A stretch of DNA of 64,000 nucleotides, taken from Candidatus Binatia bacterium (GTDB lineage Bacteria > Desulfobacterota > Binatia > Bin18). Below are positions 5,649 through 59,044 of this stretch, piece by piece; the stretch's first letter is position 1, and each line of letters starts with the position of its first letter. The notes under the pieces were generated by a model. It did not search any database. It was not told where the DNA came from and saw only the letters and a list, made by a program, of their open reading frames with translations. The translations under genes were made by a program, and so were the position numbers. The DNA lies in contig CAXXHG010000043.1 of assembly GCA_963666315.2 (NCBI GenBank), forward strand, positions 512,001 through 576,000, read 5' to 3'.

Positions 5649-5706
5649 TATCTGTGAACTCACGCTCTAGTGGCATTTCCAAGTCGAAAATGTACGTTGT
5701 CTTATT

Positions 5707-5817
5707 GCCGTTCCCCTTCGACAGGCTTAGGGCGAATGGGGAGAGCGCTACTAGACCAGACACGTCCGTACTGAGCTTGTCGAAGCCCGTCCTGAGCCCA
5801 GCCGAAGGGTATGAACG
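5707..5817. repeat. REP-like element, CTGAGC...CGAAG family (inverted plus tandem units)
   Basis: CCCTTCGACAGGCTTAGGGCGAATGG inverted relative to CTGAGCTTGTCGAAGCCCGTCCTGAGCCCAGCCGAAGGG; related copies at 23237 and 47901. Confidence 0.75.
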
Positions 5818-5898
5818 CCCACGAATGGACGACTTCCAGGTAGGCGCAGTACTAACGTCTATTTGGAAGTGTAAGAACTGTAAGGAGCTATCGTAAAC

Positions 5899-8445
5899 AT
5901 GGAGTCGTATTTCCGCTGGATTATCCGCTTTCGTTTCTTGGTCATTGGCCTTGTTCTGGCCTCTACTGGCCTGGCTTGGGTCCAGCTGCAATCGTTGCGT
6001 TTTGAGGGCGATGCTGACGCCTTCATCCCCCGAGACGACCCGGTCATGAGCTATAACGATCTAGTCGAGGAGCGCTTTGGTATAAGCGATCTGATTGTTA
6101 TAGGGGTTCTTAATAAAAATCCGGACGAAAACGGGGTCTTTAACCCACGTACCCTGGCCATCATCAAAGAATTCTCGGAAGAGATCGCCCTGCTGCCAGG
6201 CATCAAAGCCATCCGGGATGAAGACGTAGCAAGTGTGGCCACGCTCGATAATATCACCGGGACGGCTGACGGCATGGCCGTCGAGCAGTTCATGGAAACG
6301 GTTCCTCAATCACCCGAGTCACTCGAAGCATTAAAGCAGGCACTCTTTCACAATTCGATGTTCGTCAACTGGATCGTCTCCCAGGACGGTACCGGCATGC
6401 TCATCATGGCCAAAATGGAGCCGGGTGGTGGGACAGTCGAAGGGACTGCGAGACGGATGGCCATTTATACCACCATCCGCGATATGGTTGAGGCGAAAAA
6501 AGCGGCCGGCGCTCCAGAGGAATTCCATATTGCAGGACAAGGCGCTCTGGAGGTCACCTTTGAGGAGGGGATGCGGCAGGACATGGAGACCTTCATCCCG
6601 CTCATTCTCGTGATTGTCCTCGGCACGTTGTATTTTACCTATCGGAGTGTGCGCGGTGTCTTGCTCCCTTTGGCGGTTGTCCTGGTCTCGGTGATTTGGA
6701 CGTTGGGTATTATGGCCGCTGTCGGGATTCCCATGTATTCCATTTCCACCATGATGCCGGTTATCCTGATGGCGGTTGGAGTTGCGAATGGCATTCATAT
6801 ACTCAGCCGTTATTACGAGGAGGTCTTGCAACATCCGGACGTTTCCTCACCCGACGCGGTACTCGCCGCTATGCGAGAGATGTGGCAACCGGTGGTCTTC
6901 ACCTCCTTGACTACGGCGGCCGGGTTTTTATCCTTTTTAACCGCTAGCATTCTGCCCATCCGCTATTTTGGTGTCTTTACCTCTATAGGTGTCGTGGCCG
7001 CGATGGTTTTCTCCATCACCTTTTTTCCGGCTCTGTTGAGCCTCCTGCCGGTCAAAGTCAGCCGTGGCTTGCGAGCCCAAATGGGCCGCAGTGGTGACCT
7101 GGCGGCGACCGGCTGGGCGGCACGGACGCTCTCCCGCTTAGGCGTCGGCGTTGCGCGAAAACCAATAGTGGTGTGGGGAGTGACAACCCTTGTCATGCTG
7201 GTGTGTCTGCTTGGTGCGCAGCTCATTTTTGTAGATACCTCATTTATCAAGATGACCGATCCAAACAGCCCCGTGCGGATTGCGGATACCGTCTTGGGCG
7301 AGACGTTCCAAGGCAATCTGCCGCTGTATATTGCGATTGAAGGGCATCAGCCGGATCTACTCAAAGATCCGGTGCTGCTTGCCAAACTCGATCGCCTCCA
7401 AGCCTTCGTCGAACAAGATCCGATCGTTGGCGGGTCTTTGTCGTTGGCCGAGTATATCAAACGCATGAACAGGGTGATGAACGAGGATCGTCCAGAAATG
7501 GAAGTGATTCCAGACTCGCAAGACCTCGTCGCCCAGTACTTGTTGCTGTATTCTTTCTCTGGTGATCCTGACGATTTTGATGAAATCGTGGATTACGACT
7601 ATCAATACGCCAACCTGACGATATTTTTGCGCTCGGATAGCACCCAGGACATCAAACGCGTGGTTGAGCTTGTGCGAGACTTTGCCGTGCGTGAATTTGG
7701 ATATGCCGGAGACAACGACAACGCAGATACCGGCGCACGGGACCCGTGGCCCATCCGCTTTGGCCGCTGGCTGGCTGGCATCGAGCCCACGGTTGTTGGT
7801 TGGGAAACAAACAGCGGTTTTCGACTTGGGATTGCTGGGAATGGCTATCTGACTACCCGTTTTAGCGAACTGGTGGTATCCGGGCAGCTGGCGAGTCTGG
7901 TCGTCTCCCTCGTGGCCGTCTTCTTATTGACGTCGTTTATGTTTCACTCCTGGGTCGCTGGGCTGATCAATATTATCCCGATTAGTTTAGTCATGGTTTT
8001 TAGTTTTGGACTGCTCGGACTTCTCGGCATCCCACTTGAAGTTGGCAAATCGTTAACCGCCTCTATGGTGATTGGTATTGGCATCGATTATACAATCCAC
8101 TTCCTGAATAAATACCGGATTAAAGTCCGCTCTGGCTTGACGGACCCTGAAGAGATTACCGCAGCTACCATGGCGACGTCGGGCAAGGCCATCTTTTTTA
8201 ATGCACTAGTTGTGACGGCTAGCTTCTTAGTATTTCTCACCTCAAACTTTCGACCTAATTTTTATCTCGGGGCGATGTTGTCGCTGAATATGGGCGCATG
8301 CCTCTTGGTGTCGATGACCGTCCTGCCCGCGATCCTGAATACGTTTAAACCGCGTTTTGTGTACGGCGAAAAGCCGGGGTCTGTGACGCCGCCGCAAACG
8401 GCTGACCGAGCAGTTTCAGCGAGAGAAGAAGAGGAAGCAATATAG
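5899..8445 (+). CDS. MMPL-family (RND superfamily) transporter, copy 2
   Basis: 848 aa, collinear with copies 1 and 3; GIGIDYTIHF; AAGGAG RBS. Confidence 0.92.
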   Translation: MESYFRWIIRFRFLVIGLVLASTGLAWVQLQSLRFEGDADAFIPRDDPVMSYNDLVEERFGISDLIVIGVLNKNPDENGVFNPRTLAIIKEFSEEIALLPGIKAIRDEDVASVATLDNITGTADGMAVEQFMETVPQSPESLEALKQALFHNSMFVNWIVSQDGTGMLIMAKMEPGGGTVEGTARRMAIYTTIRDMVEAKKAAGAPEEFHIAGQGALEVTFEEGMRQDMETFIPLILVIVLGTLYFTYRSVRGVLLPLAVVLVSVIWTLGIMAAVGIPMYSISTMMPVILMAVGVANGIHILSRYYEEVLQHPDVSSPDAVLAAMREMWQPVVFTSLTTAAGFLSFLTASILPIRYFGVFTSIGVVAAMVFSITFFPALLSLLPVKVSRGLRAQMGRSGDLAATGWAARTLSRLGVGVARKPIVVWGVTTLVMLVCLLGAQLIFVDTSFIKMTDPNSPVRIADTVLGETFQGNLPLYIAIEGHQPDLLKDPVLLAKLDRLQAFVEQDPIVGGSLSLAEYIKRMNRVMNEDRPEMEVIPDSQDLVAQYLLLYSFSGDPDDFDEIVDYDYQYANLTIFLRSDSTQDIKRVVELVRDFAVREFGYAGDNDNADTGARDPWPIRFGRWLAGIEPTVVGWETNSGFRLGIAGNGYLTTRFSELVVSGQLASLVVSLVAVFLLTSFMFHSWVAGLINIIPISLVMVFSFGLLGLLGIPLEVGKSLTASMVIGIGIDYTIHFLNKYRIKVRSGLTDPEEITAATMATSGKAIFFNALVVTASFLVFLTSNFRPNFYLGAMLSLNMGACLLVSMTVLPAILNTFKPRFVYGEKPGSVTPPQTADRAVSAREEEEAI

Positions 8446-8536
8446 AAAACCATGTGGACAATGACAATCGGACTCGGGTTGCTCGTCTTGAGCACGGCCC
8501 TAGCTGTCTCTGCGGAAGAAATTCCCGGCGAGCCGA
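8441..8536 (+). pseudogene. 5' remnant of a LolA-like lipoprotein-sorting protein gene
   Basis: MTIGLGLLVLSTALAVSAEEIPGEP matches MTIGLGLLLLSTIAPVYAQEIPGEP at 12019; the ATGA coupling is mutated (ATAG); similarity ends abruptly. Confidence 0.8.
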
Positions 8537-8716
8537 GGCTATATTTATTTTGCGCCGCAGCCGCCGATCTGGCCGGCCGGCGCGATCTTCTGGTCCGTAC
8601 CAATCGACGAAGGCAAGGTACGGGTGTTCACGTGCGCGACCTTCCACGGCGAATCCAAGGATCGTGCCCGCGCGTGGATCATGCAGTTCGTGCATTGGCG
8701 CAGTCTTCTCTCCGTA
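8537..8716 (+). pseudogene. Internal fragment of an unrelated gene, possibly a Rieske oxygenase catalytic domain
   Basis: Frame starting 8537 reads GYIYFAPQPPIWPAGAIFWSVPIDEGKVRVFTCATFHGESKDRARAWIMQFVHW; WxVPIDxxxxRVF resembles Rieske oxygenase alpha-subunit C-terminal strands. Confidence 0.35.
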
Positions 8717-8748
8717 CTTGATCTAACTGAACGTTCGGTTAATTATAG
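8717..8748 (+). promoter_or_regulatory. Promoter with near-palindromic TetR operator
   Basis: TTGATC-17 bp-AATTAT (overlapping TATAGT); spacer holds TAACTGAACGTTCGGTTA (8724-8741), an 18-bp palindrome with one mismatched pair. Confidence 0.7.
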
Positions 8749-8757
8749 TAGGTAGAT

Positions 8758-9450
8758 ATGTCTCGACCAGTCAAAACACCTTCATCGCCTGATTATCGGA
8801 CCAAGATCGGTACGGTGGCTGAAGCGCTGTTTGCCGAACGTGGCTTCGACGGGACCTCCCTGCGCGAGATTGCCGAGCGGACTGGGGCAACCAAGGCGCT
8901 CATCTATCACTACTACGAGAATAAAGAGGCGCTGTATCAGACGATTCTCGAGGACGGGGTGAGTGGCGTTGTCACCCAGGTTGAAGAGATTGCGGAAGAC
9001 GGGACAGATCCCGAGGTCCAGATCCGGGCTATTGTCCAGGTGTTTCTGAATGCCTACCACGATGCGCCGCACCGTTTCCAGATGATCCAACGCGCGATCG
9101 ACGACCATCATTCGATTGCGGCTGTTCTCGCTGAACGCTGGTTTTCGCGTGCGCACCTTGCCTTACAGGCTATTGTTGCCGAAGGTGTGCGACAAGGCGG
9201 TTTTAAGCCACTGCCGGCCCAGATGGTTCCGTTCGCTATCATTGGGCTTATCGTCCACACGCTGCGCGGGCAGAAACTTGTCAGTCACATTGATCCGAAC
9301 CTGTCTGGCGAGCAGGTTTTAACTGCCCTGCCGGATTTAGTGCTAGCATTGCTCACAGCCGATTCTGGTCAAAAAAAAATCAGCCTAAGCTCTTCACTTC
9401 CGTCTCGGAGGCGTTCGCCGAGTCAGGCCAAACGAAGAGCTAAAGGTTAA
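8758..9450 (+). CDS. TetR/AcrR-family transcriptional regulator
   Basis: ALFAERGFDGTSLREIAERTGATKALIYHYYENKEALY; paralogue of 1964-2647. Confidence 0.93.
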   Translation: MSRPVKTPSSPDYRTKIGTVAEALFAERGFDGTSLREIAERTGATKALIYHYYENKEALYQTILEDGVSGVVTQVEEIAEDGTDPEVQIRAIVQVFLNAYHDAPHRFQMIQRAIDDHHSIAAVLAERWFSRAHLALQAIVAEGVRQGGFKPLPAQMVPFAIIGLIVHTLRGQKLVSHIDPNLSGEQVLTALPDLVLALLTADSGQKKISLSSSLPSRRRSPSQAKRRAKG

Positions 9451-47900: not shown

Positions 47901-47954
47901 CCGCTCACCCTGAGCTTGCCGAAGCCTGTCCTGAGCGTAGCCGAAGGGGGCGAA
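47901..47954. repeat. REP-like element, CTGAGC...CGAAG family, overlapping the cysNC 3' end
   Basis: CTGAGCTTGCCGAAGCCTGTCCTGAGCGTAGCCGAAGGG. Confidence 0.75.
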
Positions 47955-49887
47955 TCCGCTCTTCAATCGCGCGGAAGACGGCGTCGGTGCACCCTTCTAC
48001 AGTCTGATCGACTGTGGTCAGGCGTAAGGCCGGATTTTCAGGCTGCTCGTAGGGAGAAGAGATGCCGGTGAATTCCGGAATCTCACCCGCGCGCGCCTTT
48101 GCATACAGCCCCTTTACATCCCGCTCCTCACACACCTCAAGTGGCGTATCTACGTACACGTCAAAAAAGCGCTCGGGCCCAATGACCTCGGCTGCATTCT
48201 GACGATCAGCCAGAAACGGTGAGATGACCGGGACAAGCACGATCAGGCCGGCCTGATTAAACAGCTGGGCGATCTCGGCGATGCGCCGAATATTCTCGCG
48301 TCGGTCGTCTGTAGAAAACGCCAGATCACGGTTGAGGCCGAAGCGTACATTGTCTCCGTCGAGACGATAGACGTGAAAGCCTGCAGCATGCAGGCGCTGT
48401 TCGAGCTGCTCGGCAATCGACGATTTGCCGGAACCGGATAAGCCGGTCAGCCAGACGGTCAGCGCACGTTGACCGAGTGCACTCTCCCGATCCGTTACTG
48501 AAATAAGACCCGTCTCTTCACGAATATGGGCTGATTTCTGAGCATCGACTTGAACCGGCGCCATACGCTGCAGGACTTGCTCTGGCATCCGGTCCAAGAC
48601 CATACCGGCGCCAACCGTGTTGTTCGTCAGGCGATCAATCACAATGAACGCTCCGCAGGTCCGATTCTTCCGGTAGGGGTCGAACGCGACCGGTTTTTCC
48701 AACGTAAATGCACACCGCCCGATTTCATTCAGCGCGAGCTGGTCAGCGCTCTCTCGATGCAGCGTATTAATATTCATCCGATAGCGCACGTCGGTGATCA
48801 CCCCAGGCGCTTTGTTGGTCGTGTGTTTGATGAAGTATTGTTTGTCCAGCCGTAGCGGCTCTGCGGCCATCCACACCAGCATGGCTTCAAAACTCTTGGC
48901 TTCCATGGGCACATTGTTGGGATGGACCAGCATGTCGCCCCGACTGATATCGATTTCGTCCTCAAGGGTCAGGGTCACGGCCAGCGGGGGCATAGCCTGC
49001 GCAATCTCTCCTTCAAAGGTGTGAATTGCCTTGATCCGGCTCGTTTGGCGGGACGGAAAAACCATTACCTCGTCGCCTGGACGTACGATCCCGGAAGCCA
49101 CCGTCCCACAATAGCCCCGAAAATTGAGATTGGGTCGATTCACGTATTGGACCGGAAAACGAAAGTCGATCAGATTGACATCCGAGGCAATATAGACGTT
49201 CTCCAGCATATGCATGAGCGGACTGCCCTCATACCAGGGCATGTTTTCGCCGTGATGGACAACGTTGTCGCCTTTGAGCGCAGCCATGGGCAGGAAGTGT
49301 ACGTCACTGAGTTCAAGCTTGGCCGCAAAGGCGGCATAGTCTGCCACAATACGATCAAAGGTCTCTTGGCTGTAATCAACCAGATCCATCTTATTGACCG
49401 CAACGACAATATGTTTGATGCCTAACAAAGAGGCGATAAAGCTGTGGCGACGGGTCTGGGTCAGGACTCCCAGTCGGGCATCAATCAAGATGATGGCCAA
49501 GTCACACGTGGAGGCACCGGTCGCCATATTGCGCGTGTACTGCTCATGGCCCGGGGTATCGGCAATGATGAATTTGCGTTTGGCCGTCGAAAAATAGCGA
49601 TAGGCAACATCGATCGTAATCCCCTGCTCACGTTCGGCTTTCAGTCCGTCCGTTAATAGGGCGGGATCAAAGTCCATGTCTGTCGTGCCGTAGCGTACCG
49701 AGTCTTTTTTCATCGCCTCAAGCTGATCCTCATAGATCATCTTGGAGTCATATAGCAGGCGACCGATGAGCGTACTCTTGCCGTCATCCACACTGCCGCA
49801 GGTAAGAAAACGCAACAGGTCTTTGCGTTCATGTTGGGCCAGATAAGCTTCAATATCCGTCACGATTAAGTCAGATTTATGGGACAT
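47905..49887 (-). CDS. cysNC: Bifunctional sulfate adenylyltransferase subunit 1 / APS kinase
   Basis: [34 protein letters not shown]-terminal [27 protein letters not shown]. Confidence 0.96.
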
Positions 49888-49908: not shown

Positions 49909-50865
49909 CTAGAAATAGCCTTCCTTTTTCTTCTCTTCCATCGAGCTGGACTGATCAAAATCGATCACGCGGCCCTGGCGTTCAGACTTGGTGGCTAAAA
50001 GCATCTCCTGGATAATCAGCGGCAGGGTGTCTGCCTCGGATTCAATCGCCCCGGTCAGCGGATAGCACCCGAGCGTACGGAAACGCACCTTCTTCATCTG
50101 CGGCCGTTCGCCGGGAAGGAACGGCAGGCGGTCATCGTCGACCAGAATAAGCACCCCATCCCGCTCCACAACCGGCCGTTTCTTGGCGAAATAGAGCCCT
50201 ACGATAGGAATGTTCTCTAGATAGACGTACTGCCAGACATCCAGTTCAGTCCAGTTCGACAGGGGAAAAACCCGAATGCTTTCTCCTTTGTCTACAGTCG
50301 CGTTGTATAAATTCCATAGTTCCGGGCGTTGGTTCTTCGGATCCCAGCGATGATTGCGATCTCGGAACGAATACACCCGTTCTTTGGCCCGGGATTTCTC
50401 CTCGTCACGCCGCGCCCCACCAAAGGCCGCATCAAACTCATATTTGTCGAGCGCTTGTTTGAGCGCTTGCGTCTTCATGACATCGGTATGCTTTTTTGAA
50501 CCGTGGCTAATAGGCCCGATTCCTGCTTTGACGCCGTCTTGGTTGATATACACGATGAGGTCGAACCCCAGCTCTTTTTTGACGTAATTGTCTCGAAACG
50601 TAATCATGTCCCGGAATTTCCAGGTCGTATCAATATGCATGAGCGGAAAAGGCGGCTTGCCTGGGGCAAACGCTTTACGGGCCAAATGCAACATGACGGC
50701 AGAGTCCTTGCCGATCGAATACAACATGACAGGATTGTCAAACTCGGCCGCAACTTCCCGAATGATGTATATGCTTTCTGCCTCAAGGCATTTTAAATGC
50801 GTGAGAGCATAGAGATTTTTTTTCCCCGAATTCTTTTCAAGCAAACTCTTTTCCGTCAAACTCAT
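49909..50865 (-). CDS. cysD: Sulfate adenylyltransferase subunit 2
   Basis: [53 protein letters not shown]. Confidence 0.96.
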
Positions 50866-50992
50866 TTCGGTATAACTCTCCAATTTCTCAGCTCCCTTCT
50901 CGACCAGACCGGACTGGATATTTTCATTATACGCAAACACAGAAATAAAACAGAGACACACAGACCACAGACTTATCCAGATTCTGCCAGAT

Positions 50993-51808
50993 TCATACTG
51001 GACGAGCCGAACCGGGCCGGCACAAGGAACACTGGGGGTCTTTCTCTACAATATGCTCAGTAAAATGAAAGGCTGGGAATGTACACTGCAGGAGTTTTGG
51101 TACGCTTTCTTGATCGGCGGCAACGATCACTTTGAGCGCTTCCGTCGTTTGCTGCGCCCCCATGAATAACGCCGGGGCAGCATCTGTTGACTCGGCTCCC
51201 CGAGCTGGCTCTGCATGGAGGAGATCAGGGACTGGGAAATCGGACGAAAGACAGCGTAGGCACGGCCAGTCCGGCTTGTCGCCCCGAAAGACGAATAGAT
51301 ATGCCTGTCCCGGCACGAGGTGCGCCCAAATGAACGGCTTCCGGGCCACATAACAGGCGTCGTGCAGGACCGCTGTGGCACTTAACACGAGGTCATAGTG
51401 TTGAACCAGCTGTTCCGGTCGTAGAGCGGCCTCTTCATCGTCCCCTCCGATGTGGGTGATAATGGTGCAATCAGGATTCAGGCGCGTGAGCGTCTTGATC
51501 CGCTCATCCTGCTCATTCTGGTCTGATTCACTCGCATCCTCAGCCAAAGCCGAAAAGACCGTGCGAGCTGTTCCAGAGGTACCAGAGGTGACAGATGTAC
51601 GAGATGTATTAGATGTGACAGATTGCGGGCGGATAATGCCGATAGTCCCAACCCCGGCCGCTGCAAGATACAGGAGAGCGGTTGCCTCCAGCAGCCCGTC
51701 AGTGTGGACGAGAACTCGGCTGCGTAGGATTTTTTCCTGCCCTTTTCCCCCACACTGGGGCAAGATGATCTGTCGGCTATAGCGTTCGATCTGGGCGTCA
51801 GAGAGCAT
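50993..51808 (-). CDS. MoeB/ThiF-family protein with degenerate nucleotide-binding site (pseudo-E1)
   Basis: Keeps [26 protein letters not shown] and CSLC; lacks GxGxxG (HTDGLL), SNLxRQ and DxxD. Confidence 0.85.
51571..51624. repeat. In-frame 9-bp tandem repeat within the pseudo-E1 gene
   Basis: ccagaggta ccagaggtg acagatgta cgagatgta ttagatgtg acagatt; encodes [18 protein letters not shown]. Confidence 0.7.
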
Positions 51809-51811
51809 AGA

Positions 51812-52048
51812 CTATTCGATGACGTTCTTTTCGATCGGCTCGACGGTGACACCTTTTTCTCGCAGCCAGGCTACGGCTTGGTCGATATCCGCCTGCTTCC
51901 CTTCGACTTCCAGTGCGACCAGTCCCATCTCGCCGGAAACATTCGCCCCGCGGATATTCGTCACCAGATGAAACTGCTGCCCAACGAGGTAAATAAGGGG
52001 CTCTTTGATAAGCGCTGTGGGGTACGTCAAATAGAATTTCTCAGTCAT
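51812..52048 (-). CDS. Stand-alone NIL-domain protein
   Basis: LTYP...EPLIY...FHLVTNIRGANV...GLVALEVEG...AVAWLREKGVTVE. Confidence 0.85.
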   Translation of the reverse strand: MTEKFYLTYPTALIKEPLIYLVGQQFHLVTNIRGANVSGEMGLVALEVEGKQADIDQAVAWLREKGVTVEPIEKNVIE

Positions 52049-53049
52049 GCCATTCCCCGTGCCTCAGCGTCTGCCCGGCGGAGATCAAAATCTTTCCAGC
52101 CAACCCACAGATTCGTGCTGAGGTATTTATCTCCAAAATCAGGGAAGAGCGTCACCACCATGCCGGCATCGATTTCACGTGCAATCTTCAGCGCCGTCCA
52201 CATCGCAGCACCGGAAGACTGACCCACTAAGAGACCCTCTTCCCGGACGAGTCGATACACAGTCTCATACGCATCCTCGGTCGAAACACTGATCTTGTCG
52301 TCAAGCTGCTCTTCGTGGTAAATGCCGGGCACGATAGAGCTGGCCATGTGCTTGAGTCCTTCCAAGCCGTGCAACGCATCATCCGGCTCCACGCCGACAA
52401 TCTGGACGTCGGGATTGTGCTCCTTGAGATACCGACCGGTCCCCATCAGCGTCCCGCCGGTGCCCATGCCCGCCACAAAGTGCGAGATTTTTTCCTGTGT
52501 TTGCCACCACAGCTCTGGGCCGGTCGTCTCGTAGTGGGCGAGAGAATTGGCCGGATTAAAGTATTGATCGGGTTTGAAATAACGCTCCGGATTTTCGTGT
52601 AACACCGCACGACACTGTTCGAGAGCGCCGTCCGAACCCTCCATAGGGTCACTGAAAATCATCGTAGCACCATACGCGGCAATCATTTTCTTGCGCTCGA
52701 TGCTGACGTTGGCTGGGATGACCAGCGTGACAGGATATTGGAGCACTGCCCCAACCATAGCCAAGGAAATGCCGGTGTTACCGGAGGTCGAGTCTAGAAT
52801 GACCTTGCCCGGCGTCAACGCTCCGGTCTCAATTCCCTCCTGGACCATGCGTAGCGCGGGTCGATCTTTGACCGAACCACCGGGATTAAAGCCTTCGAGC
52901 TTGGCAAAGATACTCACGCGCGGAGAGATGCCCGTGGTAATCCGGGTAATCTCTAAAAGCGGCGTATCTCCAATCAAATGAAGGACAGACGGGACCCGCA
53001 GCAGTCCGGACTGGGGCGGCCCCTCGGAACGTCCAGGCAAAAGGGACAC
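52045..53049 (-). CDS. cysM: PLP-dependent cysteine synthase B family
   Basis: AKLEGFNPGGSVKDR, STSGNTG, GMGTGGT, GQSSG, FPDFGDKYLS. Confidence 0.88.
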   Translation of the reverse strand: MSLLPGRSEGPPQSGLLRVPSVLHLIGDTPLLEITRITTGISPRVSIFAKLEGFNPGGSVKDRPALRMVQEGIETGALTPGKVILDSTSGNTGISLAMVGAVLQYPVTLVIPANVSIERKKMIAAYGATMIFSDPMEGSDGALEQCRAVLHENPERYFKPDQYFNPANSLAHYETTGPELWWQTQEKISHFVAGMGTGGTLMGTGRYLKEHNPDVQIVGVEPDDALHGLEGLKHMASSIVPGIYHEEQLDDKISVSTEDAYETVYRLVREEGLLVGQSSGAAMWTALKIAREIDAGMVVTLFPDFGDKYLSTNLWVGWKDFDLRRADAEARGMA

Positions 53050-53052
53050 TTC

Positions 53053-53328
53053 TCACCCTCCGGCAATGGCAGGCACAACGGACACTTCGTCTCCGTCTTT
53101 AACTGGAGTCTCGAGATTATTGAGAAAACGAATGTCTTCGCCATTGACAAAAATGTTGACAAAGCGGCGCACCTGTCCCTCCTCATCACACAGCCGCTCC
53201 TTCGTACCGGGATGGTGACTTTCCATATCATCAATTAGCACCCCAACCGTGGCTCCATCGGCCGAGACCACTGCCTCACCGCCGGTCAAGCGACGCAGTG
53301 GAGTTGGGATACGTACCTGAACACTCAT
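53053..53328 (-). CDS. MoaD/ThiS/CysO-family ubiquitin-like sulfur carrier
   Basis: VRIPTPLRRLTGG, RRFVNIFVNGEDIRFL, free C-terminal PAIAGG; GAGGAGG RBS. Confidence 0.93.
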   Translation of the reverse strand: MSVQVRIPTPLRRLTGGEAVVSADGATVGVLIDDMESHHPGTKERLCDEEGQVRRFVNIFVNGEDIRFLNNLETPVKDGDEVSVVPAIAGG

Positions 53329-53404
53329 ATGAATTACCTCCTCGTTCGGGTTCACTATTGCGAGTCCACTGTTGCGGTTTTGGTGTGGTCTGACAATCAC
53401 CCTG

Positions 53405-54688
53405 TTAATGCAGCTCTTCCGGATTTACCTTCAGCTGTTCGCCTTTCTGCTCGGATGACAGAGAGGCATACAACTGATCAAAGTCGGCTAATCGGGCCTC
53501 GATAAGCAACGGCTGCCGCACCTGATCCAGCACGGCCTCAATAGTTTTATACCCATTGCCCGTAATACAAATCACAATGGACTCATCCCGAGGAATGCGG
53601 CCTTGCTCAATAAGTTTTTTCGTCACGGCAACAGTCGTACCGCCAGCCGGTTCCGTAAAAATTCCCTCAGTCTGGGCAAGCAGTTGGATGCCTTCGATGA
53701 TCTCGGCGTCCGTCGCCGCTTCTCCCCAGCCACCTGAGTCACGCACGGCGCGCAGAACGTAATATCCATCGGCGGGGTTGCCTATCGCAATCGACTTGGC
53801 AATCGTCTTGGGCTTCACCGGGACAATCAGGTCGGTCTCATTGTGCAAGGCCTGTATAACCGGCGCACATCCTGCGGCCTGGGCGGTATAAATTTTCGGC
53901 CGCGGACCACTCTCCATCAATCCAACCTGCTGGAGTTCTTCAAAGGCTTGGGCGACTTTGGGCAGAATCGTGCCACCCGCGGTGGGAACAACGACATGCT
54001 GGGGAAACCGCCAGTCCAGCTGTTCAACAATTTCAAACCCGTAGGTCTTCGCGCCTTCCGTGTAATACGGCCGGAGATTGATATTGGCAAACGCCCAGCC
54101 ATATTTGTCAGCGATCTCGCTGCACAAACGGTTGACATCGTCGTAGTTTCCCCGGATCGCAACCGTACACGGACCATAGATCGTTGTGCCTACAACTTTT
54201 CCTTGTTCGAGATCGGCCGGAATAAAGATGAAACAGCGCAGTCCGGCGCGCGCCGCATGGGCCGAGACCGAGTTGGCTAAATTCCCGGTGGAAGCACAGG
54301 AGACGGTCTCAAAGCCAAACTCGATAGCCTTTGAAATCGCAATCGAGACGACCCGGTCCTTATAGGAAAAGGTAGGATGATTGACCGAATCGTCCTTCAC
54401 ATAGAGTTCTTTTACCCCTAAATGGGCAGCCAGACGATCTGCTTTGACGAGCGGAGTAAAGCCACTATGGAGGCCGACCTGCGGCTCTCCAGCGACCGGG
54501 AGTAGTTCTCGATAACGCCACAGCGAGGCGGGGCGCGAGGCGATAATCTCTCGCGAGAGCTGCTGCCGAATACTGGCGTAGTCATATTGAACCTCGAGCG
54601 GTCCAAAACACATCTCACAGACGTGGAGCGGGCTCAGGGGGTAGGCGTGTCCACACTCGCGGCAGGTCAGACCGGTAATTGTGTCCAT
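53405..54688 (-). CDS. thrC: Threonine synthase-like PLP enzyme (possibly O-phosphohomoserine sulfhydrylase)
   Basis: N-terminal CREC...CEMCFGPL Zn finger, NHPTFSYKDR, CASTGNLANS, EGAKT, EGIFTEPAGG. Confidence 0.85.
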   Translation of the reverse strand: MDTITGLTCRECGHAYPLSPLHVCEMCFGPLEVQYDYASIRQQLSREIIASRPASLWRYRELLPVAGEPQVGLHSGFTPLVKADRLAAHLGVKELYVKDDSVNHPTFSYKDRVVSIAISKAIEFGFETVSCASTGNLANSVSAHAARAGLRCFIFIPADLEQGKVVGTTIYGPCTVAIRGNYDDVNRLCSEIADKYGWAFANINLRPYYTEGAKTYGFEIVEQLDWRFPQHVVVPTAGGTILPKVAQAFEELQQVGLMESGPRPKIYTAQAAGCAPVIQALHNETDLIVPVKPKTIAKSIAIGNPADGYYVLRAVRDSGGWGEAATDAEIIEGIQLLAQTEGIFTEPAGGTTVAVTKKLIEQGRIPRDESIVICITGNGYKTIEAVLDQVRQPLLIEARLADFDQLYASLSSEQKGEQLKVNPEELH

Positions 54689-54717
54689 TTCGTATTCCTC
54701 TCGTATCTCATCATTGC

Positions 54718-55479
54718 TTATTGTCCCGCGACAGCCATTGCTTGTCGCGCCTGTGGCTGCAGAGTCGTAATAGTCGGCCTCGTTCCGCACAGGGGACAGC
54801 GGGGGCTGCGGCGGACGCGTACCTCTCGCCAGCGCAACGCCAATGCGTCATATGTCAAAAGGCGGTCGGTGAGGAGTTCCTCTCCCCCGCGTAAATATTT
54901 TACTGCTTCATTGGCCTGCACTATACCCAGGCTGCCCGCTACGCTGCCGAGGATGCCTGCTTCTTGACAGGTTGGAATTTCATCCGGATCAGGTGGGACT
55001 GGAAAAAGGCAGCGTAAGCAGGTCGTGCGCTCGGGTAAGACGGTTAATGTCTGCCCATGGAATTGTACGATCCCGGCATACGAAAACGGCTTTTTCAGCA
55101 GTACTGCTCCATCATTAATAAGAAACTTCGTTTCTAGGCCATCCGTCCCGTCGATGATAAAATCATACTCAGCGAAAAGGCCGGCCAAATTATTCGCGCT
55201 CAAACGCTGTACATAAGGAACCACAGTGATTGCAGCATTCATACGCTGCAGTTTCTCTTGAGCGGAGCGCACCTTGGGTCGGCCAAGATCGGGAGTAAAG
55301 TGTAAGATCTGGCGTTGCAGGTTCGACAGTTCAACCGTGCCCGGGTCTACTAAACCTATTGTCCCAACGCCGGCCAAGGCCAGTGCGAGCGCGGCGGGAG
55401 AACCAAGCCCACCAACACCAACGACTAAGACCTTGCCGTCCCGAACGCGAGCGTGCCTAGCGCGTTCGACCCTTTCCAT
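54718..55479 (-). CDS. MoeB/ThiF-family adenylyltransferase (E1-like) with shortened N-terminus
   Basis: VLVVGVGGLG, VELSNLQRQ, GRPK, DGTD, CLRC, PTCQEAG, CPLC; AAGGA RBS; in-frame TAG 10 codons upstream. Confidence 0.9.
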   Translation of the reverse strand: MERVERARHARVRDGKVLVVGVGGLGSPAALALALAGVGTIGLVDPGTVELSNLQRQILHFTPDLGRPKVRSAQEKLQRMNAAITVVPYVQRLSANNLAGLFAEYDFIIDGTDGLETKFLINDGAVLLKKPFSYAGIVQFHGQTLTVLPERTTCLRCLFPVPPDPDEIPTCQEAGILGSVAGSLGIVQANEAVKYLRGGEELLTDRLLTYDALALRWREVRVRRSPRCPLCGTRPTITTLQPQARQAMAVAGQ

Positions 55480-55521: not shown

Positions 55522-55550
55522 AAAAAGCCCCTTCCCGATAAGAAAGAGGC
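55522..55550 (-). terminator. Intrinsic terminator (riboswitch expression platform)
   Basis: GCCTCTTTCT-TATC-GGGAAGGGGC-TTTTT; contains CTTATC complementary to the P1 3' strand GATAAG (antiterminator). Confidence 0.8.
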
Positions 55551-55570
55551 TGATGAACTCAGATCACTCT

Positions 55571-55688
55571 CCTTATCTCTCCCTCTCATGTGAGGGTGGG
55601 AATTAGCACCATATTTGTCTCTTCTTGGGAAGGGACAAAAGGTTGCTGTGGCGTCACTGGGCCAGTCCCTCAGCCACTCTCGATAAGG
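55571..55688 (-). promoter_or_regulatory. SAM-I (S-box) riboswitch
   Basis: CCTTATCGAGAGTGGCTGAGGGACTGGCCCAGTGACGCCACAGCAACC...ATGGTGCTAATTCC...AGATAAGG matches the S-box consensus; P1 CCTTATC/GATAAGG. Confidence 0.95.
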
Positions 55689-55742
55689 TTCTATATATCG
55701 CCTGAATAGTCCTGTGTATTCCTCCACATAGGAATTTCTGTG

Positions 55743-55807: not shown

Positions 55808-57241
55808 CTATTCGTCCTCGAACTCGAAGTCGATGCTATCAATATCGATGTCAAGAACTGCGTCCCGCGCCGCTCTAATTTCAGCGCCGCGCTCTATCTT
55901 TATCCGGACAACGGAAGCATCTGTATCTACGGGAACAATCTCATCAACTGCCGCCATTTCCTCACGAGCTCCTTCGCGAGGGCCAGCATCATCCAGGGAT
56001 TCAACCGTTGCGCTCACTTCACGTCCTTCTTCCAGAGTCTCAGCCAGCTCCCTAGCGGTTTCAGGCTCTGGGACGACGCTGTCTGTCGTATTTGAGTCTG
56101 CACCGTCTTCTTCAGCGCTCAGAACGCCGGCTGCTTCGAGTGCTGCGACGTCCCCGTCAAGTTCGAAGTCCTCATCGTCCACCGTTAATTCCTCTTCCAG
56201 GTCGGCGGCAAAGCCAGTATCAAGTTCCAGCGCGTCGCTGTCACTCATCTCAAATTCATCACTATCCTCACCATCCTCGTCGCGCTCAATCTCTTCCCGA
56301 TAGTCCTCATCGACTTCGAATGATCTTTCTTCGTCTTCAAATTCCGCATCTAACGCCCGCTCTTCTTGTTCAGCCGCTTTCTCTGCAGCAAACTTCTCCG
56401 TATCTGCCTCAGTACGTGCGAGGCGTGCCGCGTCTTCCTGTTTTTTCAATTCAGAAACAAGTAGCAGTAAAGGGTCGACTCCGGACACCAGGAGTCCACC
56501 CAATTCCGATGCTGCGGCGTCCGGCTCGTCAGCCTGTGGTTCATCACCTGCTGCCTGGCGCGCGGCTTGCGCTCGTACGGCCAGGTCAGCCAGATCGACA
56601 TGTCCTTCGTGATTGAGAATTCTTCCGAGTCGGCCTAAAGCGTCAACAGCTGCGTCCGTCTCGGAATACCGCTCAACAAGGGTCCGGAGTCGTGCCTTGG
56701 TGGCCACTTTATTCCCCAGCTTTTCGTTAAAATCCGCGACATACAGTTCATGATTGGCCATGACATCGCGCGCGGCTTTGCTCTTTTCTTCCGCTTGCAG
56801 GACAAAAGCGCTGTCCGGATAGCGGTCTATCACTTGTTGGAAGAATCCGTCCGCCTTGCGCGTGACCGCCTGATCACGATCCGGGGTACGGATCTGCTCA
56901 TAGTTCGCCATGCCGAGAAAATACTTCACAAACGGCATGTGCTGACTGGTTGGAAAGGCGCGTTCAAAGTCTCGGAGTGTGGTTATGGCCTCAGCGTAAT
57001 TTTCTTCAAGGAAGTGTCCATAGGCCGCTTTGAGCTCGGCTTCCTCAGCGTAGGGATTCAGCGGGTACTGCTCGAGCAGTTCCTGGTACTTCTCGGAGGC
57101 GAGCAAATAATCCTCGTCTTCAAAGGCCTCGGCTGCCTCTTGATAATACTCTTTTGCTGAGGGTCGTTTGAGAGTCGCCGAGCACCCAACAACACCCACC
57201 AAAACGATGCTCAGGAGAAAGACCCCAATTCGTTCAGACAT
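55808..57241 (-). CDS. bamD: Outer-membrane assembly lipoprotein BamD with long acidic C-terminal extension
   Basis: Lipobox VVGC; TPR pattern LLEQYPLNPYAEEAEL, PDRDQAVT, VIDRYPDS, MANHELYVADF. Confidence 0.87.
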   Translation of the reverse strand: MSERIGVFLLSIVLVGVVGCSATLKRPSAKEYYQEAAEAFEDEDYLLASEKYQELLEQYPLNPYAEEAELKAAYGHFLEENYAEAITTLRDFERAFPTSQHMPFVKYFLGMANYEQIRTPDRDQAVTRKADGFFQQVIDRYPDSAFVLQAEEKSKAARDVMANHELYVADFNEKLGNKVATKARLRTLVERYSETDAAVDALGRLGRILNHEGHVDLADLAVRAQAARQAAGDEPQADEPDAAASELGGLLVSGVDPLLLLVSELKKQEDAARLARTEADTEKFAAEKAAEQEERALDAEFEDEERSFEVDEDYREEIERDEDGEDSDEFEMSDSDALELDTGFAADLEEELTVDDEDFELDGDVAALEAAGVLSAEEDGADSNTTDSVVPEPETARELAETLEEGREVSATVESLDDAGPREGAREEMAAVDEIVPVDTDASVVRIKIERGAEIRAARDAVLDIDIDSIDFEFEDE

Positions 57242-57302: not shown

Positions 57303-58973
57303 TTAAGGAGGAAAGGTCTTCCAATCCAGCCACAGACGTCCGTCTCGATAGATACGTCCGGCAGGAGCGAGGCCGGTCGAATCGTCCTGAATTGCTGTGT
57401 GGACGTTGACCGTAGAGGCAAGAAGCGGATCACGGCCCAGGACAAAGCTCTGCTCACGGACGAGCACTATAGCGGCCTTATTCAGCAGGCGTGCGCGCTT
57501 GCGCGACGGCACAATCAGAAAAGCGATGTCTCGATCCCCACCCGGAGCCGCACGTCGAACCTGAGCCGTATCGAGCTTCCCTTCCCTTCCATCCTTTCCA
57601 TACTGAAAAAAACGTTCCAGTACTTCGGTATTGGCTCGAAACCCATCTCCGCCTTGCACCCGCTGAAAATAGGTCAAAATCTCCGGCTCCTGATGTCCGG
57701 CTTGGGGAACATCCGGGATCCCGTGTACAGACTGGTGTCTCCAGCCGGCAATACCCGGAACTTTACGCGCAAAAGCAAACGTTTGGTCAACCGTCACACC
57801 CAGCGAGGTATGGCAGCCCATACAGAACAAATGCTCTTCTTCAGTTTGCAGCCGTAGTTGACCGGCTGCATCCTCAATAAATCCTTGAAACTGCCAGCCA
57901 AAGACATTCCGCAAACCCACCAGGGGCGAGCCAGGAAAGAGCGGCGAGAGGCCCTCTTCTTTTTCGTCCCGCTCATGTTCATACGCCCGGAGCCGAGCCC
58001 AATCGTCAAGCCACTCGACTTTACGAGCGTAGCGGACTTCTTTCATCCGAGTGGATAGCAGAGAAGGAACATCCGTATCGATATAGCGTACCGTGTGTAA
58101 GAATTCCGTGCCTTGTGGATACAGATAGCGGTGGACTGCTATCTCTTGCGCCGCTCCAATATAGTGGGAGGGCAGTGTCCGGAGGTGCATAACAGCCGGC
58201 TGCATTATGCCATCTCCATCGAGGTCTTTCCCCGCTAGCTTCTCATTGAGCGGCTCGACTTCACGATCAATATCTTTCATCAAGGGATCAACGGCTATCG
58301 CCGCCTCAAGAATGGCCAGATTGAGTTTATAAATCGGACGTGATTGTCGACCGTACGTATCGGTCTGAAACGTACGTGGCAGGCGAATCATCACGTCGTC
58401 CGTACTGCCGTTCGTTGGCCAAAAGGTGCCCGGAAACGGCTTATACCGAATCGCCCGCCACCCACTGCCGTCCCGAGCAAAGCCTTCCCCGTCAAAGCCT
58501 TGGCGAAAGTCGAGGTCGGGCACATAACCCGGATAGTCCTGCCGGTTGTCTAAGGCAGCCCGCAGCGGGGTATAGTTATCCGCTCGGATATAGTCCAGCG
58601 CTTCAGCGTCAGAAATGTTTTCGATAGCTGCACGCCGGTCAATAAAAAGGTTTTGCCAGCGATTGGTCCGAGAAAAATCGCTAAAAGTATAGGCTGCCTG
58701 GAGAGGCCAATCGGTGAAACGATTCTCGCCGAGCGGCTGGGTGTGACACGTCCAACACGGATTGGATATGCCCGCAGTCCGCGTATAGCACTGCGGCGGG
58801 ACGGTTGCTTGTGTGTTGACGGTCTTCCCAATGCTCGCGCGCGCAACTGCGAGGGGATCGTACGCGTGGCTGGCTGGATACGTTGTGGCATTGTCTGGAC
58901 CACGACGCAGGAGTGTGATGAGAGCGGCAACCAGTACACATCCAAGCACGGTAGGCAACAGAACTCTTTCCAT
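57303..58973 (-). CDS. Membrane-anchored/exported protein with two CxxCH heme-c motifs, unknown function
   Basis: N-terminal TM; PPQCYTRT...NPCWTCH and EHLFCMGCH; FWPTNGSTDDVMIRLP. Confidence 0.75.
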   Translation of the reverse strand: MERVLLPTVLGCVLVAALITLLRRGPDNATTYPASHAYDPLAVARASIGKTVNTQATVPPQCYTRTAGISNPCWTCHTQPLGENRFTDWPLQAAYTFSDFSRTNRWQNLFIDRRAAIENISDAEALDYIRADNYTPLRAALDNRQDYPGYVPDLDFRQGFDGEGFARDGSGWRAIRYKPFPGTFWPTNGSTDDVMIRLPRTFQTDTYGRQSRPIYKLNLAILEAAIAVDPLMKDIDREVEPLNEKLAGKDLDGDGIMQPAVMHLRTLPSHYIGAAQEIAVHRYLYPQGTEFLHTVRYIDTDVPSLLSTRMKEVRYARKVEWLDDWARLRAYEHERDEKEEGLSPLFPGSPLVGLRNVFGWQFQGFIEDAAGQLRLQTEEEHLFCMGCHTSLGVTVDQTFAFARKVPGIAGWRHQSVHGIPDVPQAGHQEPEILTYFQRVQGGDGFRANTEVLERFFQYGKDGREGKLDTAQVRRAAPGGDRDIAFLIVPSRKRARLLNKAAIVLVREQSFVLGRDPLLASTVNVHTAIQDDSTGLAPAGRIYRDGRLWLDWKTFPP

Positions 58974-59044
58974 TTGTTCTTTTGACCGGAGTAAAAATAC
59001 GGTACAAGGAGGTATACTCATACACGAAAGCGAGTTACTGAGTC

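Follow-up and report, generated by a model that had tools for sequence, protein, structure and literature searches.

Can the active site of a bacterial ThiF/MoeB-type adenylyltransferase be divided between two genes, each of which keeps the part that the other has lost? The question is raised by a minus-strand operon in a stretch of 64,000 nucleotides from a Candidatus Binatia bacterium (NCBI GenBank assembly GCA_963666315.2, contig CAXXHG010000043.1, positions 512,001 to 576,000 of the forward strand), called the window here; coordinates are those of the window unless another locus is named. The assembly comprises 4.99 Mb in 47 contigs and is 92% complete. The operon contains two ThiF/MoeB paralogues, A (54718..55479, minus strand, 253 amino acids (aa)) and B (50993..51808, minus strand, 271 aa). 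A sequence-only reading of the window had noted complementary lesions in the two proteins and had proposed that they form an obligate, eukaryote-style E1 (ubiquitin-activating) heterodimer acting on the ubiquitin-like carrier encoded at 53053-53328. The evidence given below makes it fairly probable that A and B together make up a heterodimeric adenylyltransferase of the ThiF/MoeB (E1-like) type with a single active site composed from both chains, A being the proposed active subunit and B the proposed inactive, Arg-donating subunit.

The nucleotide core, the crossover-loop Cys and both zinc-binding CxxC pairs claimed for A were found as GVGGLG, ELSNLQRQ, GRPKV, DGTD, PTCQEAG, CLRC and CPLC, and the protein scored 233.8 bits against the Pfam ThiF family (PF00899, cut-off 28.1 bits; E 2e-69). 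The match placed A residues 6-229 on positions 12-237 of the 238 in the profile, so that only the first 11 positions, the RYxRQ part, are missing. A also aligned to residues 25-245 of E. coli ThiF (PDB 1zud, E 2.3e-47), with its start past the RYSRQ of that protein. The gene cannot be extended upstream: an in-frame TAG lies 10 codons before the ATG (open frame of 262 aa), and a terminator-like hairpin (55551-55526) stands ahead of it. All nucleotide-site motifs (GxGxxG, SNLxRQ, the Lys of GxPKV and DxxD) are in place except DxD, which reads DPG as the sequence-only reading had remarked. A profile search of the 253 aa matched ThiF as the only domain and no extra domain, and the PTCQEAG loop is short. 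The N-terminal ERARH of A, once considered a possible vestigial Arg motif, showed no conservation among A orthologues, and a vestigial motif under selection was rejected for this site.

B is the mirror image of A, as had been claimed. Of the motifs, ERYSRQ and both CxxC pairs remain, and the P-loop, SNLxRQ, the Lys, DxxD and the crossover-loop Cys are gone. The residues at the aligned motif sites are TDGLLE in place of the P-loop, RPQSV...ALAED in place of DxDxVELSNLxRQ and SATA in place of DxxD; the Lys is absent. Its family membership is clear from its PF00899 score (73.6 bits against the cut-off of 28.1 bits; E 1.8e-20). A profile of B orthologues (alignment A2) aligned to MoeB residues 4-248 (E 1e-30), with B R9 on MoeB R11 and B R12 on MoeB R14. 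The N-terminus is the best-conserved part of B: among 20 B orthologues, residues 1-24 were nearly all invariant (M1, L2, D4, I7, R9, S11, R12, Q13, I14, L16, P17, G20, G21, G23 and Q24), though the mean column identity was 46%.

The same division of motifs was seen when 39 A-type and 39 B-type sequences were tabulated by alignment. The GxG[GA]LG P-loop, SNLxRQ, Lys, DxxD and crossover-loop Cys were kept in all 39 A-type sequences, none of which had an aligned RYxRQ. None of the B-type sequences had SNLxRQ or GxG[GA]xG, and one had DxxD. The second Arg of the B-type motif, equivalent to MoeB Arg14, was kept and followed by Gln in 39 of 39, and the first Arg was replaced in three sequences (by I, H and L).

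For a survey of the class, 41 Candidatus Binatia genomes were drawn and the operon was read at the sequence level in 33: the genome of the window, 17 of 24 further species in its genus and 15 genomes that belong to 11 additional families. Outside the 33 were seven same-genus genomes and G034; five of the seven list both B-like and A-like hits, and for G009 and G003, where the contigs are short, the B-like hit is the only one listed next to the third MoeB (see below). The pair, an upstream ThiF lacking RYxRQ and a degenerate downstream B with x[YWF][SA]RQ, was present in 30 of the 33 genomes and in 10 of 12 families, with B shortened to 168-193 aa in some families. In two genomes of one family (G027 and G035) the fetched locus contained one ThiF, which was complete, and lacked B; one genome (G030) had two complete ThiFs on either side of ThrC-ThiS-CysM-NIL. 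The upstream ThiF was complete wherever B was absent or itself complete, and the 33 genomes contained neither a shortened A without B nor a degenerate B beside a complete A. The B open reading frame (ORF) was intact in all 30 pair-bearing genomes read, and the upstream stops and short N-terminus of A recurred in independent assemblies, closed chromosomes included. The complementary losses thus recur in syntenic operons, and the orthologues are not full-length in 30 of 33.

A second scan, with one genome per species and the B alignment as query, gave 80 loci, of which the best 35 were B-type; its overlap with the 33-genome set is large. The B-bearing loci had an A-type gene in 32 cases and a ThiF fragment cut by the contig end in two, and in the last the contig was too short. 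Most of the other 45 loci encoded complete ThiFs of the ordinary kind, in many cases within ThrC-ThiS-ThiF-NIL operons from other phyla. Two Nitrospirota-labelled metagenome-assembled genomes (MAGs; loci L100 and L106) carried two complete ThiFs around ThrC-ThiS-NIL. A Syntrophobacterales-labelled MAG (L105) had a complementary pair of its own in the gene order ThrC-NIL-B-CysM-ThiS-A (5608-6768 and 7747-8814 of that locus). Its B has an N-terminal rhodanese domain, RYSRQ, GGGPLS, HGDLGGQ and ECSGN, and its A-type ThiF is without RYxRQ. The ThiS frame of L105 runs into the A-type ThiF without a stop, which from the sequence would be either a fusion of ubiquitin-like protein and E1 or an internal start.

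With the B profile as query against 1.84 billion representatives, 13,968 proteins (50% identity representatives) were returned at E up to 0.001. Among the best 150 of these, 50 keep the Arg motif without xNLxRQ (a pattern that admits TNLQRQ and GNLQRQ), and 42 of the 50 are also without the P-loop; a few are intermediate. Judged by their sequences, B-type proteins are a sizeable family that current sources name as ordinary adenylyltransferases ('molybdopterin-synthase adenylyltransferase' or 'adenylyltransferase/sulfurtransferase'), though they would be unable to bind ATP, and tools that seek a MoeZ-like step in Cys/Met pathways would misread A and B.

Ratios of nonsynonymous to synonymous substitution (dN/dS) were calculated by the Nei-Gojobori method for the 117 of 190 pairs with 0.1<dS<2; the pairs share history, so the figures are descriptive. 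The median was 0.161 for A and 0.309 for B, and within B it was 0.163 for residues 1-62 and 0.357 for the rest. B is therefore under purifying selection (median 0.31). It is constrained less than A, for which the mean column identity of the orthologue alignment (A3) was 81%, and the constraint on its N-terminus equals that on the active enzyme.

A complex of A, B and ATP was modelled, each protein with its own 20-row alignment. The interface score (ipSAE) was 0.92, 0.92 and 0.93, versus 0.02 for the best of three controls, the partner predicted local distance difference test (pLDDT) value was 78-79, and the runs shared at least 90% of contacts. Among 80 solved complexes the mark used had been attained by 58, and among 110 mismatched pairs by 2; with custom alignments and a ligand, this calibration is only roughly valid here. 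The predicted interface consists of the helix pair common to ThiF dimers (A 171-190 with B 208-226) and of B 8-13 and 15-19 against A 51-52 and 54-58, which belong to the LSNLQRQ of the ATP site. A 51-52 touches B R9 with an expected error of 0.5 Å. The N-terminus of B (8-13) was thus placed on the SNLQRQ motif of A, and the controls were passed; at the level of prediction, the model shows that B still resembles a ThiF dimer partner with its N-terminus reaching the site of A.

According to the textbooks, E1s evolved when a MoeB/ThiF-like homodimer underwent duplication, after which one copy ceased to be catalytic and kept the Arg that it lends to its partner. In the SUMO and NEDD8 E1s the inactive subunit donates an Arg. 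The two E1s, SAE1(Aos1)-UBA2 for SUMO and NAE1(APPBP1)-UBA3 for NEDD8, resemble A/B in having two genes, an active and an inactive paralogue and one ATP site (PMC11354881 and PMC10557695). The same sources give a Cys domain, a ubiquitin-fold domain and an E2 partner as defining features of eukaryotic E1s, and the A/B pair is without them: A has no catalytic-Cys (SCCH/CYS), FCCH or ubiquitin-fold domain, and no E2-like gene was found between the BamD-like gene and CysNC. The expected product also differs, being a biosynthetic thiocarboxylate versus a conjugate in the eukaryotic E1s. Of the proposed 'eukaryote-style E1', the pairing of an active with an inactive adenylation subunit stands, and the Cys domain, ubiquitin-fold domain and E2 do not. 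The likeness is convergent or parallel, not orthology, and concerns the adenylation core only.

The closest single-gene counterparts are E. coli MoeB-MoaD and ThiF-ThiS (PDB 1jw9 and 1zud), which share with A/B the fold, the family, a GG-ended carrier substrate and a Zn site of two CxxC pairs. In these systems ThiF Arg11 and MoeB Arg14 are arginine fingers that act on the neighbouring subunit (PMC13139853). MoeB and ThiF are each the product of one gene and form a symmetric dimer with two active sites, whereas in A/B two genes hold half of the determinants each, with at most one complete site per dimer.

Two further systems pair an active with an inactive ThiF-fold unit. In the yeast ct6A dehydratase Tcd1-Tcd2, as described in PMC13139853, the Arg59 finger of inactive Tcd1 completes Tcd2 and none is given back, both proteins are needed in vivo, and single-copy relatives are homodimeric. 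Unlike A/B, Tcd1-Tcd2 is eukaryotic and mitochondrial, acts on tRNA and has extra C-terminal domains. BilD of type II Bil operons likewise combines active and inactive adenylation domains, and its key Arg9 comes from the inactive part (PMC10557695). BilD consists of a single chain that includes a CYS domain, and its partners in antiviral conjugation are an E2 and a ubiquitin-like protein, whereas A and B are two genes in a Cys/Met biosynthesis operon. The authors of PMC10557695 describe all other known bacterial E1-like proteins as homodimers.

Several points weigh against the proposed heterodimer. According to PMC13139853, the MoeB Arg14 and ThiF Arg11 fingers are non-essential and E. coli TcdA is without a finger, so A might work as a homodimer. 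In the same paper, R59A of Tcd1 lowered activity by only 26%, though Tcd1 is required for the stability and function of Tcd2; this cautions against assuming that the finger is essential in A/B, and B may therefore matter mainly as a structural partner. The Gly of DPG in A (residue 47, window 55339-55341) is unique to the window copy among the 39 A-type sequences (37 have Asp and one Glu), and the two closest relatives read DxD; from the sequence, this private Gly could be a weakened copy or a base-call or assembly error. The score of the A and B model may be a memory of the solved MoeB/ThiF homodimers (PDB 1jw9 and 1zud), and A:B was the only pairing modelled, so that the score speaks neither to binding nor to a preference of A for B over A. 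Loci outside the 41-genome draw were found by a B search, from which B-less A-type genes would escape. A complete rhodanese-MoeB is encoded elsewhere in the genome (contig C15). Binding, stoichiometry and activity of A:B are themselves predictions from sequence and model. The claim of an obligate heterodimer accordingly fared in two ways: a functional pair is supported by the shared losses, the invariant Arg, selection and the model, and 'obligate' goes too far given that the MoeB and ThiF fingers have been reported as non-essential in PMC13139853.

A could instead be a self-sufficient homodimer without a finger, with B a pseudoenzyme that has another job in the pathway, such as scaffold or regulator with NIL, CysM or the carrier, and keeps RYSRQ for that contact. 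We regard this as unlikely, although NIL is translationally close to B, the two occur naturally fused in one case and B outside its N-terminus evolves faster than A. A homodimeric A leaves unaccounted for the complete upstream ThiF of the genomes in which B is absent (G027 and G035) or complete (G030, L100 and L106) and the shortened one of all 30 genomes with a degenerate B. It also fails to explain why the finger Arg-Gln is the single invariant residue pair of B in 39 sequences, and the model puts the RYSRQ segment on the SNLQRQ of A.

A second alternative concerns the third ThiF-family gene, a complete 392-aa rhodanese-MoeB on contig C15 of the same assembly (G000; L001 1420-2598, minus strand) with RYARH, GAGGLG and SNLQRQ. 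Among the ThiF-family genes of the genome, the rhodanese domain was found only on this MoeB and on neither A nor B. That it charges the carrier of the operon, with A and B as redundant relics or serving another substrate, is in our view very improbable, even though the enzyme is complete and MoeZ-type enzymes are reported to serve CysO in mycobacteria (PMC3227635). The C15 gene adjoins an 85-aa ThiS/MoaD-like gene of its own (L001 1097-1354, minus strand), and A keeps every catalytic motif, has a dN/dS of 0.16 and a mean column identity of 81%, and is always in an operon with the carrier. The sequence-only reading had named a third complete moeB supplying the activity as a point against the pair: the complete gene does exist, beside its own ThiS/MoaD-like neighbour, and might conceivably serve the carrier of the operon as well. 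The C15 carrier ends in GGVRG and would need C-terminal trimming.

The idea that B is a decaying pseudogene, and that the short N-terminus of A is an annotation or assembly artefact of a degrading genome, has the earlier impression of genome decay, the 9-base tandem-repeat insert in B and the variable in-frame inserts of its orthologues in its favour, and can be dismissed as already contradicted: the same complementary pair is found in 30 of the 33 class genomes and not as decay of this one, B has an intact ORF in every pair-bearing genome with a dN/dS of 0.31 and a near-invariant N-terminus, and the upstream stops and short N-terminus of A recur in independent assemblies that include closed chromosomes.

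In the heterodimer that we favour, A would bind Mg-ATP and the Gly-Gly tail of the ThiS-like carrier and form the carrier acyl-adenylate. B, unable to bind ATP, would keep the ThiF dimer interface, the Zn-site fold and the RYSRQ segment, would place its Arg12 (MoeB Arg14, ThiF Arg11) into the nucleotide site of A, and would probably also stabilise A. The activated carrier would then be converted to a thiocarboxylate that feeds CysM for cysteine and the ThrC/MetM-like enzyme for homocysteine. S-adenosylmethionine (SAM) would shut the whole operon off through a riboswitch, and CysD and CysNC would link it to sulfate activation. For catalysis, the sulfur donor and the products this is what we infer.

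How such a pair may have arisen was addressed with two trees, both quick searches. A tree of 82 sequences nested the A clade (26 rows and L024_up; Shimodaira-Hasegawa-like approximate likelihood ratio test (SH-aLRT) support 96) in the upstream-copy lineage with the complete L025_up, L100_up and L106_up. The A and B clades had matching subclades, as is expected of a pair inherited together. The second tree was built on 53 A-lineage and complete sequences, stripped of their N-terminal columns and with 12 near-identical same-genus A rows left out; its Binatia clade (SH-aLRT 99) has 26 Arg-less and three Arg-bearing rows. The Arg-segment trait requires four changes on this tree, of which the well-supported branches force at least two. 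Because regain of RYSRQ is unlikely, the segment was probably lost more than once, each time beside a B. A point against the proposed pair is the B clade: its SH-aLRT was 89 and its branch is long, and an origin of B from a downstream complete paralogue is suggested by gene order and not by the tree.

Three stages are found in living relatives: one complete gene, two complete genes and the complementary pair. The sequences fit an order of events in which a single complete homodimeric ThiF gene was at first present and was duplicated inside the operon, the two-complete-copy state surviving in one Binatia genome and two Nitrospirota MAGs. In lineages that kept both copies, complementary losses would have made each gene indispensable; a lineage with a complete upstream copy could drop the second copy instead. 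More tentatively, and with doubt outweighing belief, we suggest that a homodimeric ThiF/MoeB has repeatedly become, in bacteria, an obligate heterodimer encoded by two genes and having a single composite site (at least two times on the gene tree, in Binatia and in the Syntrophobacterales-labelled MAG) by duplication and complementary degeneration, the dead subunit perhaps being recruited as a regulatory platform for the adjacent NIL. If so, nature would offer a tractable rerun of the step held to have given rise to the adenylation core of eukaryotic E1s.

In the full-text literature searched, a two-gene heterodimeric ThiF/MoeB was not described for any prokaryotic sulfur-carrier pathway, though a mention of inactive ThiF paralogues in a 2009 review of the E1-like superfamily is possible. 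By comparison with the systems above, heterodimers of an active and a dead ThiF fold are already known in eukaryotes (the SUMO and NEDD8 E1s and Tcd1-Tcd2) and in single-chain form in BilD, and the two-gene bacterial form appears to be new. If the proposed pair is real, the same transition from homodimer to heterodimer has occurred in a plain biosynthetic sulfur-carrier enzyme, as two separate genes. With the two-complete-copy intermediate and the ancestral single copy alive in close relatives, the origin of an obligate heterodimer would be testable with a few recombinant proteins.

The operon reads, on the minus strand, SAM-I riboswitch, hairpin, A, ThrC-like enzyme, carrier, CysM, NIL, B, CysD and CysN/CysC. 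The carrier gene (53053..53328, minus strand) encodes a ThiS/MoaD-type protein ending in AIAGG, and its ubiquitin-like nature was confirmed by a Pfam ThiS match (E 2.8e-18) and the GG end; NCBIfam SAMP1 scored 68.3 bits against a cut-off of 60. The ThrC-like gene (53405..54688, minus strand) encodes a threonine-synthase-like, pyridoxal phosphate-dependent enzyme with an N-terminal Cys-rich ribbon (Pfam PALP E 7.5e-68; NCBIfam PRK08197 317.5 bits against a cut-off of 303). Its start was taken as the ATG of MDTITGL, and the longest ORF starts at 54790. The CysM-type cysteine synthase (52045..53049, minus strand) scored 350 bits with NCBIfam cysKM (cut-off 344) and 359 bits with the cysM model, which is under the cut-off of that model (394).

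A GG-ended ThiS/MoaD carrier, CysM and a ThrC homologue are grouped in one operon, and relatives keep the gene order. Operons of this class were noted by Iyer et al. 2006 (PMC1779556). In Streptomyces there is experimental support for two such routes, CysO-CysM for cysteine and MetO-MetM with Mec and MoeZ for homocysteine (PMC13759103, Table 2). The operon shares the GG carrier, CysM and the ThrC homologue with CysO-CysM-Mec-MoeZ of Mycobacterium and MetO-MetM-Mec-MoeZ of Streptomyces, and the genome has one Prok-JAB (Mec-like) gene, outside the operon (G000:C37, 64.7 bits). The CysO and MetO systems have a single rhodanese-fused MoeZ, whereas here A and B are split without rhodanese and NIL and CysD/CysNC are added to the operon. 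From the operon context and PMC13759103, the ThrC-like enzyme is a candidate MetM-like homocysteine synthase dependent on the carrier thiocarboxylate, and the use of thiocarboxylate by both CysM and the ThrC-like enzyme may be deduced from the context, the SAM riboswitch and the same paper. Two more ThrC homologues are present in the genome (G000:C26:4119-5300 and G000:C5:1566-2735), with 36% and 31% identity to the operon copy; the former is reported with '2 TAA' inside the match.

The riboswitch at the head of the operon (55570..55689, minus strand) is a SAM-I (S box) aptamer that matched model positions 1-108 of 108 of Rfam RF00162 with 86 bits (gathering score 44.4). In related operons it stands at the head in 5 of 7 cases where the ThrC-like gene is present and in 0 of 3 where that gene is absent; this co-occurrence fits a methionine-branch role of the ThrC-like enzyme. 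The hairpin between riboswitch and A (55526..55551, minus strand) has a stem of 11 pairs followed by a T run, TTTTGCTTTC, and is probably the expression platform of the riboswitch. The sequence-only reading had left the riboswitch unnamed and given only 'the terminator'.

Upstream of B, the operon encodes a stand-alone NIL-domain protein of 78 aa (51812..52048, minus strand; Pfam NIL E 5.1e-12). The NIL/B junction (51806-51814, minus strand) reads gaa tag tct atg, with the NIL stop in frame with the ATG of B and one codon apart from it. In a metagenomic protein of 327 aa (P0110) the two are naturally fused, with W in place of the NIL stop. The junction and the fusion hint that NIL acts with B, and would suit either coupled translation of the two or a functional tie between them.

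A weak 9-base tandem repeat within B (51573..51623, minus strand; Tandem Repeats Finder period 9, 4-4.6 copies, score 37-38) encodes a Thr/Ser-rich insert that sits where SNLxRQ was lost. Five B orthologues (L029, L034, L035, L036 and L037) have an in-frame insert in common (…PRPYRATPPRRGEKTVPSWEGCRVAAGWVP…), and the B copy of G025 (L024 4879-5892) has 'SACRTT' three times over. From their sequences, these inserts resemble small repeated elements inserted in frame into loops of B that tolerate them.

B is followed by CysD, sulfate adenylyltransferase subunit 2 (49909..50961, minus strand; Pfam PAPS_reduct E 4.7e-56), which comes after B in the 17 same-genus loci read, and by a CysN/CysC fusion of the GTPase subunit and adenosine 5'-phosphosulfate (APS) kinase (47905..49887, minus strand; Pfam GTP_EFTU E 1.4e-46 and APS_kinase E 1.2e-64).

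Short pieces of the operon, with 90-100% identity, were matched by assembled contigs labelled as metatranscriptome (four runs, two of them only guessed to be RNA). The NIL/B junction was matched by an X4 piece (51685-51897) with 12 differences, and ThrC by exact X3 and X4 pieces. DNA is possibly present in these contigs, which show neither level nor strand, and we draw no conclusion on expression from them, nor from the stretches left uncovered.

On the 5' side of the riboswitch lies a BamD/YfiO-like lipoprotein gene with a YfiO domain (55808-57241, minus strand). A 572-aa ORF upstream of this gene (57303-59021, minus strand) matched Cytochrome_P460 only weakly and below threshold (E 0.0048; 17.7 bits, cut-off 27). 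The BamD/YfiO-like protein continues past its YfiO domain in a very acidic, E/D-rich C-terminal extension of about 250 residues.

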